A DNA stretch of 64,000 nucleotides from Capsulimonadaceae bacterium (lineage in GTDB: Bacteria > Armatimonadota > Armatimonadia > Armatimonadales > Capsulimonadaceae): NCBI GenBank assembly GCA_965215505.1, contig OZ244065.1:4096001-4160000 (forward strand), read 5' to 3'. A program made the translations under genes and the position numbers. The first letter of the stretch is position 1. The number at the start of each line of letters is the position of its first letter. The notes under the pieces were generated by a model, which was not told where the DNA came from, searched no databases, and saw nothing but the letters and a program-made list of their open reading frames with translations. Of this stretch, positions 962-22,212 are shown piece by piece.

Positions 962-2614
962 ATGACACAACCACACTACGACGCCATCATCATCGGGGCC
1001 GGGGCGGGCGGCGGCGTCGCCGCCGGGCTGCTGGCCGAGGCCGGCAAGCGCGTCCTGCTCCTGGAGCGGGGCCGCCGGCTCTCGTTCGCCGAGGTGGGCC
1101 GCGACCACCTGCGGAACCAGCGCCTGCCGCAGTACGGGTTCAATGCCGGGCCGGACCCGCTCGGCAACCCGCGCGTTGTCGTCTCCTCCGAGGGGGAAGC
1201 TTTTACCGTCAACCCGATTGACGGCGGGTATCAGGCGAACGCCGCCTGCGTCGGCAGCGGGACGCGGGTCTATGGGTCGCAGGCTTGGCGGTTCCTGCCG
1301 GACGACTTCCGCATGGCCTCCAAGTACGGCGTCCCCCCCGGCAGCAGCCTGGCCGACTGGCCGATCACTTACGAAGACCTCGCGCCGGACTACGAGCGCG
1401 CCGAGTGGGAGATGGGCGTCTCGGGCGACGAGGCGACGGCGGGCAAGGGTCGCCCGCGCCACCGGCCCTACCCCATGCCGCCTCTGCCGATGAACATGCA
1501 GGGGCGGGCCTTGCGGGCGGGCGCGGCGGCGCTGGGGTGGGGGACCGAGCGCGTGCCCCTTCTCATCAACAGCGTCCCCAATCTGGGCCGGGACGCCTGC
1601 GTCCACTGCCAGCACTGCGTCGGCTTCGCCTGCCCGACCGACGCCAAGAACGGCACCCAGAACACGATGATCCCGCGCGCCCTGGCCTCGGGCAACTGCA
1701 CCCTGGAAACCGAGGCGATGGCCGAGCGCATTGACACCGATGGGGCGGGCCGCGTCGCCGGCGTCACTTACTGGACCAAGGAGGGCCTGCACGTCACGGC
1801 CACGAGCGAGGTCGTCGTCGTCTCGGGCGGCGCGGTCGAATCGGCCCGGCTGCTGCTCAACTCCAAGTCTTCCGTCCACCCCGACGGCCTGGGCAACGCG
1901 CACGACCAGGTCGGGCGCAGTTTGCAGGGGCACTACTACGCCGGGGCGGTGGGCTGGATGCCGGACCCGATCTGGGACGGCATCGGGCCGGGCGCGACCA
2001 CGGCCACCATCGAGTGGAGCCACGACAACGTGGACGAAAAGGGCGAGCGGATCATCGGTGGCGGGATGCTGGCCGACGACTTCATCTGCCTGCCCCTCAG
2101 CGTCCTGAAGGGCCGCGTCCCCGTCGAGGTCCCGCGCTGGGGCCTGGCCCACAAGGAGTGGATGCGCCGTCACTACACGCGGATGCTGCTCATCACCGGC
2201 CCCGTCCAGGAGATCCCCAGCCCCGAAGGCCGCGTGTCCGTGGACCCGGACGTGTGCGACCGCTGGGGCCTGCCCGTCGCCCGGATGTCCGGCACGACCC
2301 ACCCGGAAACCCTCCGCACCTACGACTTCATGCGGCTGCGCGCCGAGGAGTGGGCGCGCGCCTGCGGGGCCGAGGACACCCGGAGCCACGCCAACGCCCT
2401 CACCCTGAGCGGCGGCCAGCACCAGGCGGGGACCTGCCGCATGGGCGACGACCCGCAAACGTCAGTCACCGACAAGCATGGCCGCGTCCACGGCCACGAC
2501 AACCTCTACATCGCCGACGGCTCCCTGCACGTCACGAACGGCGGCTTCAACCCCGTCCTGACGATCCTCGCGCTTTCCTTTCGCGTCGCCGGGCATCTGG
2601 TGAGGTCTTGGTAG
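962..2614 (+). CDS. GMC family oxidoreductase (FAD-dependent)
   Basis: DAIIIGAGAGGG FAD motif, CxxCxxC...CP cluster, HQAGTCRMG, NPVLTILAL. Confidence 0.92.
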   Translation: MTQPHYDAIIIGAGAGGGVAAGLLAEAGKRVLLLERGRRLSFAEVGRDHLRNQRLPQYGFNAGPDPLGNPRVVVSSEGEAFTVNPIDGGYQANAACVGSGTRVYGSQAWRFLPDDFRMASKYGVPPGSSLADWPITYEDLAPDYERAEWEMGVSGDEATAGKGRPRHRPYPMPPLPMNMQGRALRAGAAALGWGTERVPLLINSVPNLGRDACVHCQHCVGFACPTDAKNGTQNTMIPRALASGNCTLETEAMAERIDTDGAGRVAGVTYWTKEGLHVTATSEVVVVSGGAVESARLLLNSKSSVHPDGLGNAHDQVGRSLQGHYYAGAVGWMPDPIWDGIGPGATTATIEWSHDNVDEKGERIIGGGMLADDFICLPLSVLKGRVPVEVPRWGLAHKEWMRRHYTRMLLITGPVQEIPSPEGRVSVDPDVCDRWGLPVARMSGTTHPETLRTYDFMRLRAEEWARACGAEDTRSHANALTLSGGQHQAGTCRMGDDPQTSVTDKHGRVHGHDNLYIADGSLHVTNGGFNPVLTILALSFRVAGHLVRSW

Positions 2615-4109
2615 GCGCGCGCTCCCACGCCTTGCCGCCGCAGTTCACGGAGCATCGGGCGATCTCTGCTTTCAGCTCGTCCCCGCCGACGATGCCGCTG
2701 CCGAAACCGAGCCGCTCGCCGCGCCCCACGACGACCCCGCCGCCTTCCGATGTCAGGAAGTAGTCTTCCACCTGTGCCCAGGATAACCGACGCCGGCCCA
2801 GCGGCGTGATGCGGGTCAGGCCGTTCTCATCCGTTTCAATGCGGCAGACGCGGTAGGTGTGCAAGCAGGCGAGGTACACCAGCCCGAAGAAAAACGCCGC
2901 GCAGGCCTGCCCCGTTATCTGCGTTCCTGGTATCAGCCCCTGCCACGTCGCCCAACAGCCGAAAATAATCGTCAGGCAGATGCCGAGCGGCAGCCCCAGC
3001 AGCGCCCGGTGCATGCGTGTCCGGTAATGGTACACGCGCGCCCCTTCCCCGACCCGCCCGCCACTCCAGCGCGCCGCCTCGCCGCCCAATACCTCCGGGT
3101 CAACATCCGCCCGCCATTCCTTATCCTCAGCGTTCGCGGCGTAGCGCTGGATGACTGCCTTCAGGAGCGTCGCGCCGCTCAAGACAGCGAGAAAGTCAAA
3201 CCTGCCCTGCCGCGTTTCCACAACGTAGCGGATGGTCAGCGCGCCCGGCCCGCGAACGACCTGGTAGCCGGTTACATCTGACCATGCCGCCTCCACCCGC
3301 CGCGCCCCGTCTTCAAAGACTATCTGGTTTGTGTCCGCCGTGATGCGCTCCGCCTTGCGCCGCGCCGCCGCGCGGTACTGGGCGAACACCACCAGGAGCG
3401 GCCCTGCGTACAGGAAAGGGATGATCAGGTAGGGCGCGAAGAGGGCCAGCTTCATCGGCCAGCCCACAAACCCGCCCAGCCCCGCCGCCTGCTGCAACGG
3501 CTTGGCAAAGACGTAGATGAAGCCGGTCAAAACCAGCTTCAAGAGGATGCGCGGCGTCCAGACGTTCTGCCAGGTGTCATACCGGAAGACGCGCGGCCAT
3601 GCATCACAGGGGCGCGTGCCGAGCAAGTCCCATCGGCTGACGGCGGCACCCGTCGCACGGCGCGTGACTTGCTCCCGGAGCGAGTCTACCTGCGTCCACT
3701 GCCTGCTGAATGAGACTGCCCCGGATGGCGTTCTAATGACTGCCCGCAGCGAGTCCCGTCCCGCCTGCACCGGAAGGCGGTCGTAATAGTCCTGGACCTC
3801 CTCCCAGGGCGCCGCCTTCCAGCCGAACCCCCCGTGCCAGCGCAGGCCGCGCACATCCGCTTCAATGCGGGCGTTCAGCGTCCACCACGTCAGCCACGCC
3901 GCCGTGAGGAAGGAGCCGAGAGAGGTGGTGCCGAAGAAGGCTGCTTCCAAAACCGGGTGCAGGGGTGGCGGGTTGGAAGGGAGGGTCGCGCCCAGCCCAG
4001 CCATGATGGCAAAAAGCACGGCCATGCCGACCATTAGCCACCACTCGGCGGCAGGGCGGCAGGAAACAGTTCCAGCGGGATTGAAAGCGTCGGGCGCGTC
4101 GGTCGGCAT
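2547..4109 (-). CDS. Membrane protein with three repeated TM-hairpin plus PH-like segments
   Basis: Repeated units such as RIEADVRGLRW...WEEVQDY, ITADTNQIV...WSDVTGY and IETDENGL...WAQVEDY, each after hydrophobic helices; start uncertain (4109 or 4205). Confidence 0.65.
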   Translation of the reverse strand: MPTDAPDAFNPAGTVSCRPAAEWWLMVGMAVLFAIMAGLGATLPSNPPPLHPVLEAAFFGTTSLGSFLTAAWLTWWTLNARIEADVRGLRWHGGFGWKAAPWEEVQDYYDRLPVQAGRDSLRAVIRTPSGAVSFSRQWTQVDSLREQVTRRATGAAVSRWDLLGTRPCDAWPRVFRYDTWQNVWTPRILLKLVLTGFIYVFAKPLQQAAGLGGFVGWPMKLALFAPYLIIPFLYAGPLLVVFAQYRAAARRKAERITADTNQIVFEDGARRVEAAWSDVTGYQVVRGPGALTIRYVVETRQGRFDFLAVLSGATLLKAVIQRYAANAEDKEWRADVDPEVLGGEAARWSGGRVGEGARVYHYRTRMHRALLGLPLGICLTIIFGCWATWQGLIPGTQITGQACAAFFFGLVYLACLHTYRVCRIETDENGLTRITPLGRRRLSWAQVEDYFLTSEGGGVVVGRGERLGFGSGIVGGDELKAEIARCSVNCGGKAWERAPTKTSPDARRRERKARGSSGRG

Positions 4110-4290
4110 GGGATGATTGACACGCGGGGCGGTGGAAAGTTGCGACGGGGCGGGGATGGGCAGAAGGAATACCACGGGTTTCAACCCGTAGATCTCTTGC
4201 GTCACCTATGGGGAAAGTGCTACAGCAGAAAGAGACAGCCTGCTGAGGGGCTGTCTCTTCCAACTTGGACAGGAAGGAGGTGCATCTCCA

Positions 4291-4420
4291 ATGTCCAGAA
4301 ATGTGCGACAGGCCATTCTACGGGTCCGATCTACGGGTCCGACCCATCGCGCAGGTTATCGCGGCGATATTCTCGATTATCGCTGCGATTCTTCGGACCG
4401 CTAAAAGCCCCGGCTTCTAG
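4291..4420 (+). other. Small hydrophobic peptide ORF, candidate type I toxin, carrying a 13-bp duplication
   Basis: SD aaggaggtg at 4274-4282, ATG 4291; tctacgggtccga duplicated at 4317-4342; hydrophobic frame PIAQVIAAIFSIIAAILRTAKSPGF ends at TAG 4418-4420. Confidence 0.55.
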
Positions 4421-4430
4421 TCTCCGGTGA

Positions 4431-4468
4431 GAAGAAGGGGATCGCTGCCAGGCGGTTCCCTCTTTTTG
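4431..4468. terminator. Bidirectional intrinsic terminator-like hairpin
   Basis: gaagaaggggatcgctgccaggcggttccctctttttg: stem-loop with a T run on + and a purine run on the other side. Confidence 0.6.
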
Positions 4469-4677
4469 CTGTGTGAGATGCGGGGAGGGCCAGCCCTACA
4501 TCCACAGCAGCAAAGTGTTTGCTGTATGTCACGCAGCGTGACACAGCTAGTTTGACACCTGAGCGCCCGATTGTCAATAGCCCGGCGACAGATGCGGTAG
4601 CGTATCATCGGCTGTTATTCTGATTTTAATCAACCCACCGTACATGACAAAAGAAGAGGACGCGATGAATTTGGAAA

Positions 4678-4728
4678 GGGCGCGATGAATCGTGCCCCTA
4701 CGCCGTAGGGGCGAACCTTGTGTTCGCC
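4678..4728. repeat. GTAG-type REP pair, family A
   Basis: gggcgcgatgaatcgtgcccctac (4678-4701) and gtaggggcgaaccttgtgttcgcc (4705-4728). Confidence 0.8.
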
Positions 4729-4775
4729 TTTCGTAACGTGTTCGCCTTTCTCGCCTTTTCCGCCCCTCTAATGCA

Positions 4776-5915
4776 TTAATGCATTGCTGTCGCCCCGCCC
4801 GCCCCATCGCGGCTCAGATAGACGCGGCTGTAGTTCCACTCGTAGAATTTGCCGTCGAAGGCCGAGGCGGGCAAAGTGTGGTTGACGCTGCCGACCTGGG
4901 TGTGGCCCCAGCCGCCGTCGAACAGGAAGACCAGGTCAATGGGTTCGTCCCCGGCCTTGTTGCCGTAGGTCCAGAAGTAGTTCGCGCCGTGCTGGACAAG
5001 CACCCCGTCCACATACATGGCGAAGGTGTCGTCTTTCTTATACAGCCAGGTCCAGACGTGGTACTGGGAGGCGTCAAAAGGCTTGACGCCCTGGGCGGCC
5101 ATCGTCTTGCCCCAGTCGCCGTACTCCACGGCGTCTTTGGCCGGGGTGGCGACGGAGTTTGAGTGCCAGAAGCGGCCGTCGTAGTTCGTGTTCCCGCCGC
5201 CGTTGTCGTAGCCGAAGCTCTCGACGAGGTCCTGCTCGGCCCCCTGCGCCCCCTTGTCCCAGGCCCACTTGTTGCCCGCCGTCCAGATGGCGAACCAGAA
5301 GTAAGGCGGGGGACTGTAGCGGACGCGCGTCTCCCAGACGACATCCCGGCCCAGCAGGGACCCGGCGCGCGCCAGATTCCACTTCGCCATGAACGAGCCG
5401 TCGCCGGCGTTGTGCAGTTTCGGGTCCACGGTCGTCGCCCCGTTTAAAGGGGTGAGGAAGGTCTTCAGCGAGTCTGCCGTGAACTGACGCACGGGCGGGC
5501 TGTTGACCCCCTCGACCGGCTGGTGGAAGAGCGCGTCGGCGGCGTCGGGGGCGACCGTGACCGCCCCATAGTTGGTGCCGTTGCCGATGGTGCCGAACTG
5601 GTCGTGGTAGAAGAAGTTCGCGCTCATGTCGGCATAGTTCTTGACCGTGCCGTCCGCGCCGAAGTGCCAGTTCTTGACCAGCACCATGCCCGGCCCGCCG
5701 ATCCCGAAGGACGGGCCAGGCCCGGTGGCGGGGTCGGCGACGGTCCCGCCGCCGATGGTTTCCGGCACCTTGGCGGCAGGCGTTTTGACCGCCGGCTTCG
5801 TCTTCGCGGCTTTGGCCGTATGCGCCTTCGTCTTCGCAGCCTGGGTCTGAGGCGTGATGCCGAGAAGGAGCCCGGCGGCTCCGAGGAAAAGGGGGGCTAT
5901 TTTGGCGGCTTGCAT
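4776..5915 (-). CDS. Secreted GH16-like glycoside hydrolase (beta-jelly-roll fold)
   Basis: Signal peptide, Lys/Ala-rich linker, WFAIWT...EQDLVE matching the ExDxxE catalytic motif, YHVW and MYVDG strands. Confidence 0.65.
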   Translation of the reverse strand: MQAAKIAPLFLGAAGLLLGITPQTQAAKTKAHTAKAAKTKPAVKTPAAKVPETIGGGTVADPATGPGPSFGIGGPGMVLVKNWHFGADGTVKNYADMSANFFYHDQFGTIGNGTNYGAVTVAPDAADALFHQPVEGVNSPPVRQFTADSLKTFLTPLNGATTVDPKLHNAGDGSFMAKWNLARAGSLLGRDVVWETRVRYSPPPYFWFAIWTAGNKWAWDKGAQGAEQDLVESFGYDNGGGNTNYDGRFWHSNSVATPAKDAVEYGDWGKTMAAQGVKPFDASQYHVWTWLYKKDDTFAMYVDGVLVQHGANYFWTYGNKAGDEPIDLVFLFDGGWGHTQVGSVNHTLPASAFDGKFYEWNYSRVYLSRDGAGGATAMH

Positions 5916-16806: not shown

Positions 16807-18328
<1,522 letters not shown>

Positions 18329-18604
18329 ATCTTGGCTGCTAGTCGTCTCCTACCTCGGTAGGAGCGCAAAGCGCCGATCACAGGTCGATCTTTCTTGGAA
18401 CTACTTTTTTGTTACTGCTCAATTGTTCATTTCACGAGACCCTATTTAGTTTTCAATGTGCATTGTCATCGTTTTGACAACACAGCAGCCAGCGAGAGTT
18501 TATGACCATTCTCATTCAGGCAACCGCATAAGATACGGAACAATCGTTTCGCACTCCTCACAAGGGAAGGCACGGTTGCCTTCCCTTTTGCGTTGCCGAC
18601 CTGG

Positions 18605-18681
18605 GGGCCTATAGCTCAGTTGGTTAGAGCACTCGGCTGATAACCGAGAGGTCAGAGGTTCGAGTCCTCTTGGGCCCACCA
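18605..18681 (+). tRNA. tRNA-Ile(GAT)
   Basis: Cloverleaf, anticodon arm ctcgg-ctgataa-ccgag, CCA encoded. Confidence 0.96.
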
Positions 18682-18705
18682 ACCCCTTTCACAAGGTTAT
18701 CGCCT

Positions 18706-18778
18706 GGGGAATTAGCTCAGTTGGTAGAGCGCTACTTTTGCAAAGTAGATGTCAGCGGTTCGAACCCGCTATTCTCCA
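18706..18778 (+). tRNA. tRNA-Ala(TGC), CCA not encoded
   Basis: Anticodon arm ctact-tttgcaa-agtag; G3:U70 pair; followed by ct instead of cca. Confidence 0.95.
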
Positions 18779-19068
18779 CTGATGCTTTCGCATCCTGCAC
18801 ATTAAGATTTGAGTTCTGTCGCCGCGTAACAAAGTTTCACGCACCAAGGCTTGACAAACTCGTAAGGTTTGCGGTAACATAATTGCCGCGAAGAAATCAC
18901 CGACCAGCCCTCATCGTTAGGGAGCGGTGCCGGAGAGAAGCAAATGCTCCTCTTCAACTGTCCTTTGACAACTGCATAAAGAAAAACAAACGGGTAAACA
19001 GCATTACAATTTCATCGATGCTGTCAGCGTAGCAATATGTCTGTCAGTGAAGAGAAAAACCTTTGAGT

Positions 19069-21999
<2,931 letters not shown>

Positions 22000-22089
22000 A
22001 CAAAAACTCAGCAATAATCGCTGTGAACCGTTTGTTTTTTGATATGCAGTTGTCCAAGGACAGCCCCTTCGGGGGATGTCCTAACGATT

Positions 22090-22204
<115 letters not shown>

Positions 22205-22212
22205 TTATTGTC

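Follow-up and report, generated by a model that had tools for sequence, protein, structure and literature searches.

Does the unannotated locus at positions 4197–4577 of the stretch analysed here (the window, 64,000 nt of the Capsulimonadaceae bacterium contig OZ244065.1) hold a type I toxin–antitoxin unit, and if so, is its small open reading frame (ORF) intact? An earlier note on this DNA had taken the locus for a possibly new type I family, attenuated or reversibly switched by a 13-bp tandem duplication within the toxin ORF. Our analysis bears out part of this interpretation, namely a family of related loci, a conserved hydrophobic frame, a hairpin across the translation start and a convergent promoter, while a proposed 5′–3′ fold-back and the reversible switch fared worse. 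On the strength of sequence comparison, we estimate at roughly 60% the probability that the locus represents a new type I toxin–antitoxin-like family found in Capsulimonadaceae only, its copy in the window being a pseudogene. For the window alone, the outcome is modest: an unannotated, probable frameshift pseudogene.

A conserved small-gene family with a frameshifted copy in the window

The start site of the small gene can be read directly from the letters and is as previously described. A perfect Shine–Dalgarno (SD) sequence, AAGGAGGTG, lies at 4274–4282 on the plus strand, 8 nt 5′ of the ATG at 4291–4293, and is complementary to the 16S rRNA 3′ end, CACCTCCTT. The disrupted ORF spans 4291–4420 on the same strand. 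Initiation at ATG 4291 yields a hydrophilic product of 37 aa (top 19-residue Kyte–Doolittle mean –0.54; stop at 4404). The only frame that runs into a hydrophobic helix (mean 2.14) is that of ATG 4301, which has no SD of its own; the helix part lies in the +1 frame and ends at 4420, with the stop codon at 4418–4420. ORF listing and hydropathy thereby agree with what the earlier note had said of the two frames. The duplication, also confirmed, consists of TCTACGGGTCCGA twice in succession at 4317–4342 and shifts the frame. Tandem Repeats Finder gives a period of 13, 2.0 copies and 100% identity, and by a rough estimate the chance of a perfect 13-bp tandem repeat in 64 kb is ~1e-3.

Homologous DNA spans window positions 4221–4473 (query 25–277), with matches at E < 1e-10 and 68–76% identity in 16 of 23 genomes of the same genus. 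No DNA match below E 0.003 was found in 17 genomes of other genera, and a DNA search of the window's own genome returned no second copy of this subfamily (subfamily 1). Many genomes are multi-copy, often with head-to-tail tandem pairs, eight of which are present among the fetched loci. From these loci we extracted 36 homologous copies, which together with the window copy make an alignment of 37. An intact 38-codon ORF is seen in 35 of the 36 homologues, 34 of them starting with ATG and preceded by AAAGGAGGTG, and one with TTG; the other homologue (L036) is frameshifted by a 1-nt insertion near its 3′ end. The expectation of multiple intact copies was thus borne out for Armatimonadota assemblies but not for the window's own genome, which has a single DNA copy.

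In the alignment, the duplication appears as a 13-column insertion that is absent from all 36 homologues, and the window copy can therefore be placed, as a frameshifted member, in a conserved small-gene family. With one repeat taken out, its ORF regains the 38-codon frame typical of the family, as had been predicted. Consistent with this, a family profile recovers residues in the +1 frame of the window at positions 11–38 (E 2.6e-9). A ribosome starting at ATG 4291 would leave the helix frame after codon 13 and produce the hydrophilic 37-mer, making the window copy a pseudogene. Our best reading of the sequence, then, is that this unit was inactivated by the 13-bp tandem duplication. By visual comparison, all 8 invariant residues and 6 of the 9 that are nearly invariant are retained in their native frames, and the copy keeps both the RNA fold and the antisense promoter-like box despite the frameshift.

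The 38-codon ORF is protein-coding and under purifying selection. Across the 35 intact ORFs, the ratio of nonsynonymous to synonymous variation (pN/pS) is 0.37 in frame, compared to 1.24 and 2.11 in the other two frames, and column entropy at codon positions 1, 2 and 3 is 0.52, 0.31 and 1.06 bits. Conservation of the hydrophobic frame in homologous loci, on which the earlier reading depended, is therefore observed. The consensus peptide of subfamily 1, MSKxLRRAFVRxRPIAQTIAAVVSAIAAILRILKSLGF, carries a median net charge of +7, of which +5 falls within the first 14 residues. Its best 19-residue Kyte–Doolittle mean has a median of 1.95, beginning at residue 15, and Q17, S24 and R31 form a narrow polar stripe on one helix face. 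AlphaFold2 predicts one helix, residues 3–36, with a predicted local distance difference test score of 91.

The suggestion that the locus belongs to no known family agrees with database searches. Pfam and NCBIfam, searched at E up to 10, gave chance matches only (E 0.05 or worse), and Rfam gave nothing at the locus, either for the whole window at gathering thresholds or for 4000–4900 at E up to 10. A match to Rfam Atu_C4 (16.5 bits against a cut-off of 80; E 2.3) was taken as chance. Among 1.84 billion representative proteins, 14 clusters matched at E up to 1e-3, and the six that were looked up all lack a name. The closest language-model neighbours (score 0.86) are likewise unnamed clusters; a TisB cluster at rank 23 (score 0.82) is a lead at most.

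Secondary structure of the transcript

Each unit of the family is predicted to produce a transcript of ~235 nt from its own promoter, ending at its own terminator. In the window, the predicted promoter occupies 4197–4226 on the plus strand, with –35 box TTGCGT at 4197–4202, an 18-nt spacer and –10 box TACAGC at 4221–4226. By eye, it aligns with the promoters of solo copies and first tandem copies (–35 TTGCTT, TTGCGT or TTGACT; 17–18 nt; –10 TAAAGT, TACAAC or TATAAC). Given its position, transcription is predicted to start just 5′ of a stem-loop. The idea that TACAGC is a decayed –10 box was dropped; five intact copies likewise have C at the end of the hexamer.

The predicted transcript (4229–4472) folds with a minimum free energy (MFE) of –113.3 kcal/mol and a z score of –6.1, and none of 200 shuffled sequences folded as well; a second single-sequence fold gave a z score of –7.4. 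RNAalifold on the 37 copies returned a consensus of 62 pairs, 19 with compensatory changes, and the check by folding and covariation that had been called for thus came out positive. On this consensus, 96.9% of alignment cells are paired, versus 42–52% when partners are slid by 1–3 columns, and pairs changed on both sides number 19 versus 3–10 in the same slid controls. None of 500 shuffles attained any of five structure measures. From the 5′ end, the fold comprises a terminal stem-loop, a hairpin over the SD and AUG, a long-range helix around a variable hairpin (the duplication site), a hairpin in the helix-coding codons, a hairpin at the stop codon and a long terminator.

The 5′-terminal stem-loop has 12 bp in the window's MFE fold (4230–4259, plus strand). 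Its counterpart, family helix 1, contains 11 pairs, 6 of them changed on both sides, with 98% of cells paired; the same helix is found in the second subfamily described below, in partly other letters. Next comes the hairpin (4265–4298, plus strand) in which the earlier note had placed the SD and start codon. It is visible in the letters, where TGGACA (4266–4271) pairs with TGTCCA (4292–4297) and GGAG (4276–4279) with CTCC (4286–4289), and in the MFE fold the SD and AUG again lie within one hairpin. In the family, this element is made up of helix 2 (98.9% of cells paired) and helix 3 (100%); the pair between columns 46 and 72 occurs as AU in 18 copies, GU in 13 and GC in 4. The SD/AUG hairpin is conserved in two subfamilies that differ in stem letters, with covariation, in agreement with the proposed sequestration of the start site. 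We infer from the predicted fold that this pairing would affect translation.

Further 3′, the duplication falls in family helix 4 (window 4302–4308 with 4347–4353) and adds a local hairpin at 4322–4345. The hairpin in the helix-coding codons (4358–4389, plus strand; inverted repeat ATCGC.GCG...CGC.GCGAT) is family helix 5, which has 12 pairs, 96.6% of cells paired and 2 pairs changed on both sides, and recurs in the second subfamily. The predicted intrinsic terminator, a candidate shared bidirectional hairpin, spans 4425–4471 on the plus strand; within it, a terminator-like hairpin at 4436–4461 is followed by CTTTTTGCTG. In the corresponding family helix 8, 98.7% of cells are paired over 17 pairs. 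Hardly any variation is seen in the 3′ arm (0.05 bit per column), and the loop occurs in 14 variants among the 37 copies, a pattern that would fit a double constraint from two overlapping RNAs.

The earlier note had also proposed that the 5′ leader folds back on the 3′ end. Positions 4222–4234 are indeed complementary to 4460–4472 as letters, and this part of the claim stands. However, 4221–4226 aligns with the family –10 box, so that the 5′ half of the fold-back is probably largely untranscribed; its other bases belong to helix 1 and the terminator, two stems backed by covariation. We therefore rejected the fold-back as a conserved feature.

A convergent promoter-like site and a predicted antisense RNA

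On the minus strand, the promoter candidate that had been noted earlier is present at 4549–4577, with –35 box TTGACA at 4577–4572, a 17-nt spacer, and TGT followed by CAAACT at 4554–4549. We scored such sites by a rule requiring a –35 match of at least 5/6, a spacer of 16–18 nt, a location on the minus strand no more than 200 nt downstream, and a –10 box with A2 and T6 plus either a 4/6 match or a 3/6 match with a TG extension. By this measure the element is conserved: a site is found downstream of 30 of 37 copies, compared to 2 of 37 when the plus strand of these flanks is scanned and 104 of 2000 for 200-nt windows drawn at random from the fetched loci. Every solo copy and every last copy of a tandem has such a box, at a distance of 18–114 nt from the terminator; of the seven copies lacking a site, six stand first in tight tandem pairs and one is cut by the contig end. 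Most boxes are of the type TTGACA-N14-TGT-CAAGAT, to which the window's TTGACA-N14-TGT-CAAACT belongs; a second type reads TTTACA-N17-TATACT.

Assuming a start ~7 nt past the –10 box and an end just beyond the shared hairpin, the window would encode an antisense RNA of ~118 nt (4425–4542, minus strand). One RNA run, X19, listed with 5% of the words, yielded nothing at the locus and counts neither for nor against expression. Across the family, the predicted antisense RNAs are 74–170 nt long and consist of a common UUUGCUG/CAGCAAA stem followed by the terminator hairpin as read from the other strand. The first stem never varies and hence is uninformative on covariation. When the 5′ part of the antisense RNA was paired with the translation start region using RNAduplex (the 30 copies with a downstream site, 200 shuffles each), the median z score was 0.25 and the lowest –1.79. 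A second and better minus-strand promoter-like site lies at 4623–4650, 70 nt beyond the conserved box (TTGTCA, 16 nt, TAAAAT; 10/12 matches). It could give rise to a longer antisense transcript or serve as a promoter for the 552-residue ORF described at the end.

A second subfamily and the distribution of the family

The weaker matches of the peptide profile are 35-residue ORFs starting with ATG or TTG, which form a second subfamily with the consensus MKQGxWRxALKLRVIAQTIAAIVSAIAAIHQLLKK. Subfamily 2 comprises 24 copies, 19 intact and 5 broken. RNAalifold finds 61 pairs in it, 25 of them compensatory, with the elements in the same order as in subfamily 1, and its SD/start hairpin has an equivalent 7-bp stem in other letters with two covarying pairs. 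Under a promoter rule somewhat looser than that used for subfamily 1, 13 of 24 copies have a full convergent promoter versus 137 of 2000 random windows, and by eye several further flanks show TGTGGTATAAT-like extended –10 boxes.

One intact 35-residue member resides in the window's own genome, outside the window (G000:C1:3772619-3772723; L043:1020-1124, plus strand). It has the 5′ stem-loop, the SD/AUG hairpin, the ORF hairpins and a terminator-like hairpin lacking a T run, with a convergent TGTGGTATACT box directly downstream. The protein is recorded in NCBI and ENA, where it has no name.

Inactivation of copies recurs across the superfamily, with 2 of 37 broken in subfamily 1 (the window copy and L036) and 5 of 24 in subfamily 2. 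Among the broken copies are frameshifts in L052 and L048, and disrupted 3′ ends in the subfamily 2 copies of L059, L046 and L041:2095-2618.

Taxonomically, the family is confined. The peptide profile matches 22 of 23 genomes of the window's genus, both genomes from a second genus of the same family, and none in the other 20 genera of the order. In pattern scans with each species represented by one genome, subfamily 1 was found at 33 loci, of which 30 are titled as Armatimonadota, Armatimonadales or Capsulimonadaceae metagenome-assembled genomes (MAGs), and all 19 loci for subfamily 2 come from such MAGs. Typical family copies also occur on two MAG contigs titled Janthinobacterium lividum and one titled Acidobacteriaceae (L063, L081 and L088), which probably reflect bin contamination or mislabelling rather than gene transfer.

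Plasmid and phage collections gave no match. Judged by eye from the flanks, the copies occupy at least five different contexts, between ordinary genes; in L019, for example, a tandem pair has a DUF4385 gene (convergent) on one side and a GH57-family gene (divergent) on the other. Twelve copies (in L011, L013, L015, L016, L019, L020, L026, L028, L029, L034, L036 and L037) share an upstream element, ATAGCATTTTTGACGGGAATTGTCAAAC, whose minus strand looks like a strong divergent promoter (TTGACA, 17 nt, TATTCT or TATCCT). The GH57-family ORF in L019 is the next gene on the ATAGCATTTTTGACGGGAATTGTCAAAC side.

The duplication in sequencing runs

Logan contigs from three DNA runs, belonging to three studies, cover the locus: X1 over 4253–4700, X4 over 4268–4700 and X8 over 4196–4700. 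Both repeat copies (4317–4342) are bridged in the contigs of all three runs. The one-copy allele was not seen in these contigs, which do not reveal rare variants. X4 and X8 have an extra T after 4460, giving back the terminator consensus of the family; the window lacks this T relative to both the family and the two runs. X4 has a C>T change at 4410 as well. Because two of the runs with the duplication differ from the window elsewhere, the frameshift allele is real and common to diverged strains. The X8 contig matches the window over 4196–4700 and is unrelated leftwards, marking 4196 as the module edge; in the X8 strain, then, the module has a different left neighbour.

Comparison with known type I systems

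Passages of the paper on the curated database T1TAdb (PMC8594479) count 24 type I families in 218 species and give tandem repeats and hydrophobicity among the criteria used in type I searches. Type I toxin mRNAs are described there as 150–400 nt long, and 3′-overlapping antisense RNAs are described as well. The layout most relevant to ours is that of TxpA/RatA and BsrG/SR4 of Bacillus, in which, according to the same passages (PMC8594479), a convergent antisense gene lies 3′ of a short toxin mRNA and partially overlaps it. Those systems also share with the family a small hydrophobic peptide. They differ in several respects: neither the peptide nor the RNA is similar in sequence (Pfam, NCBIfam and Rfam negative), the phylum is another, the family peptide has a long basic N-terminus, and here, provided that the antisense RNA stops at the shared hairpin, the overlap would involve the terminator rather than the ORF. 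In TxpA/RatA and BsrG/SR4, a duplex forms at the 3′ ends and degradation follows.

Fst/RNAI-RNAII (the par locus of Enterococcus) and SprA1/SprA1as resemble the family in having convergent RNAs with the ORF outside the overlap, as stated in the passages cited (PMC8594479). In those two systems, however, the 5′ domain of the antisense RNA pairs with the translation start region, outside the overlap, whereas here no such pairing exceeds that of shuffled sequences (the median z of 0.25 above). In the par locus, one two-way terminator serves both RNAs.

Likeness to hok/sok, which the earlier note had invoked, is limited to a highly structured, translationally closed toxin mRNA and a small membrane peptide. 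Membership is not supported: there is no Hok-family match and no overlapping mok-like frame, the fold-back is unsupported, and the candidate antisense gene is at the 3′ rather than the 5′ end. With TisB the likeness is confined to the peptide, which likewise forms one short helix bearing a polar stripe; the sequences are not homologous, and the TisB antitoxin, IstR-1, is encoded divergently on the 5′ side (PMC8594479).

In the literature, we found no paper linking type I toxin–antitoxin systems to Armatimonadetes; supplementary tables of surveys, which possibly list ORFs of this phylum, were outside the search. Publications on Capsulimonas, judged by title and the start of the abstract, showed no toxin–antitoxin topic among the matches listed.

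Weighing the explanations

Two traits that define the type I class can be recognized in the family. It encodes a small hydrophobic protein (<~60 aa), the ORF being frameshifted in the window, and its mRNA has a fold of the kind that hinders ribosomes, with SD and AUG paired in both subfamilies and covariation to back the pairing. Under a type I-like scheme, the primary transcript would be poorly translated, since its SD and AUG are paired, and the peptide, once made, would insert in the cytoplasmic membrane and be harmful. The convergent promoter would supply an antisense RNA of 74–170 nt whose pairing partner is the terminator region, at the mRNA 3′ end, and the resulting duplex may then be cleaved or decay, much as in the 3′-overlapping systems of Gram-positive bacteria.

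Several observations weigh against this scheme. Searches of Pfam, NCBIfam and Rfam brought up no relative among the known type I toxins and antitoxins, and many small membrane proteins are non-toxic. Six copies without a convergent site are upstream members of tight tandem pairs, with the next copy 25–40 nt away. The –10 boxes of the main type (CAAGAT, CAAACT) match the consensus at only 3/6 positions and rely on the TG extension. The window's box is also palindromic with a plus-strand TTGACA at 4552–4557, so the element (TTGACA-N14-TGTCAA) may be a protein operator instead of a promoter. Read as minus-strand RNA, the shared hairpin turns the G.U pairs of the plus strand into A.C mismatches, and only about half of its tail is U; from this, the hairpin seems to be selected for the plus-strand RNA, and the 3′ terminus predicted for the antisense RNA is tentative. 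Finally, the convergent DUF4385 gene in L019 ends 74 nt from the terminator, and read-through from this gene could explain a two-way terminator in the absence of a dedicated small RNA.

Under the main rival, the family product is simply a small membrane protein without toxicity, for instance one with a role in regulation or stress. The folding of its mRNA, and perhaps an antisense transcript, would adjust how much of it is made; no toxin–antitoxin relation would exist, and the window copy would be a dead paralogue. We regard this as a serious alternative, though clearly the less probable one. The coding signal, the helix, the structured mRNA and the housekeeping neighbourhood fit it equally well, and the family has no match among plasmids or phages, where addiction modules are common. 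Arguing in the other direction are several features that count among the traits or search criteria of type I loci (PMC8594479) and seldom go with plain small proteins: the multi-copy and tandem arrangement (seen in the eight tandem pairs), the burial of both SD and AUG, the very narrow taxonomic range, the repeated frameshifting or truncation in both subfamilies, and a dedicated convergent promoter that moves with the module through different contexts. At the opposite extreme, the locus might specify a structured non-coding RNA with the ORF incidental to it. Structure is certainly very strong (z –6 to –7), and covariation extends into the ORF. But pN/pS is below 1 in the native frame alone, variation falls mostly at third codon positions, 35 of 36 copies keep 38 intact codons behind a strong SD, and the peptide core is kept between subfamilies while the letters of the RNA stems change, all of which make this the least probable of the explanations considered.

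A different role for the peptide is conceivable, as an exported leaderless cationic helix that acts on other cells in the manner of bacteriocins or phenol-soluble modulins. Its shortness, strong positive charge (+5 to +8), single helix with polar stripe and lack of a signal peptide would suit such a role, as would the tandem paralogues. Yet the copies in L019 and in the window have neither a transporter gene nor an immunity gene next to them, the flank contexts are several and unrelated with a promoter and terminator for each copy, and neither SD burial nor a convergent promoter is expected for such peptides; we consider the idea unlikely. Slightly less probable still is the reversible switch advocated by the earlier note, in which slippage between one and two copies of the repeat attenuates a toxin that remains functional. 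A perfect tandem repeat could in principle be lost in this way, the residues, RNA fold and antisense promoter of the unit are otherwise well kept, and a low-frequency revertant is compatible with contigs that are blind to rare alleles. Against this, the number of repeats varies at the site in none of the 36 homologues, and the two-copy allele is common to diverged strains. Its presence in the contigs of all three runs, from three studies, argues against a frequent switch.

We return to the type I-like family with a pseudogene in the window, the explanation we favour. One extension of it, which is speculative and in our judgement rather doubtful, is that the family operates as a network and not as isolated pairs, with recognition by kissing loops in which the terminator 3′ arm is the common target and the loop sets the specificity. 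A single antisense RNA from each locus could then act in trans on both members of a tandem pair, and the dead copy in the window would persist as an orphan antitoxin or decoy. If true, this would be the first type I toxin–antitoxin superfamily described in Armatimonadota, with the terminator hairpin as its regulatory interface. Type I toxin–antitoxin families are hard to detect via homology, and the ~60 natural variants in two subfamilies, with ample covariation at the closed start site and a conserved convergent promoter, make up a comparative set for the restraint of a membrane peptide by mRNA folding and antisense RNA in a little-studied phylum.

Neighbouring genes in the window

The locus is flanked by two minus-strand ORFs, one of 552 residues (2547–4205) and one of 379 residues (4776–5915), neither of which matches a Pfam family at E up to 0.001. 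The true start of the 552-residue ORF is probably further in, because the listed GTG at 4205 overlaps the promoter region of the small gene. Elsewhere in the window, a complete and ordinary rRNA operon occupies 16807–22205 (16S, 16807–18322; 23S, 19069–22001; 5S, 22090–22205), with two tRNAs in its spacer at 18605–18678 and 18706–18778.

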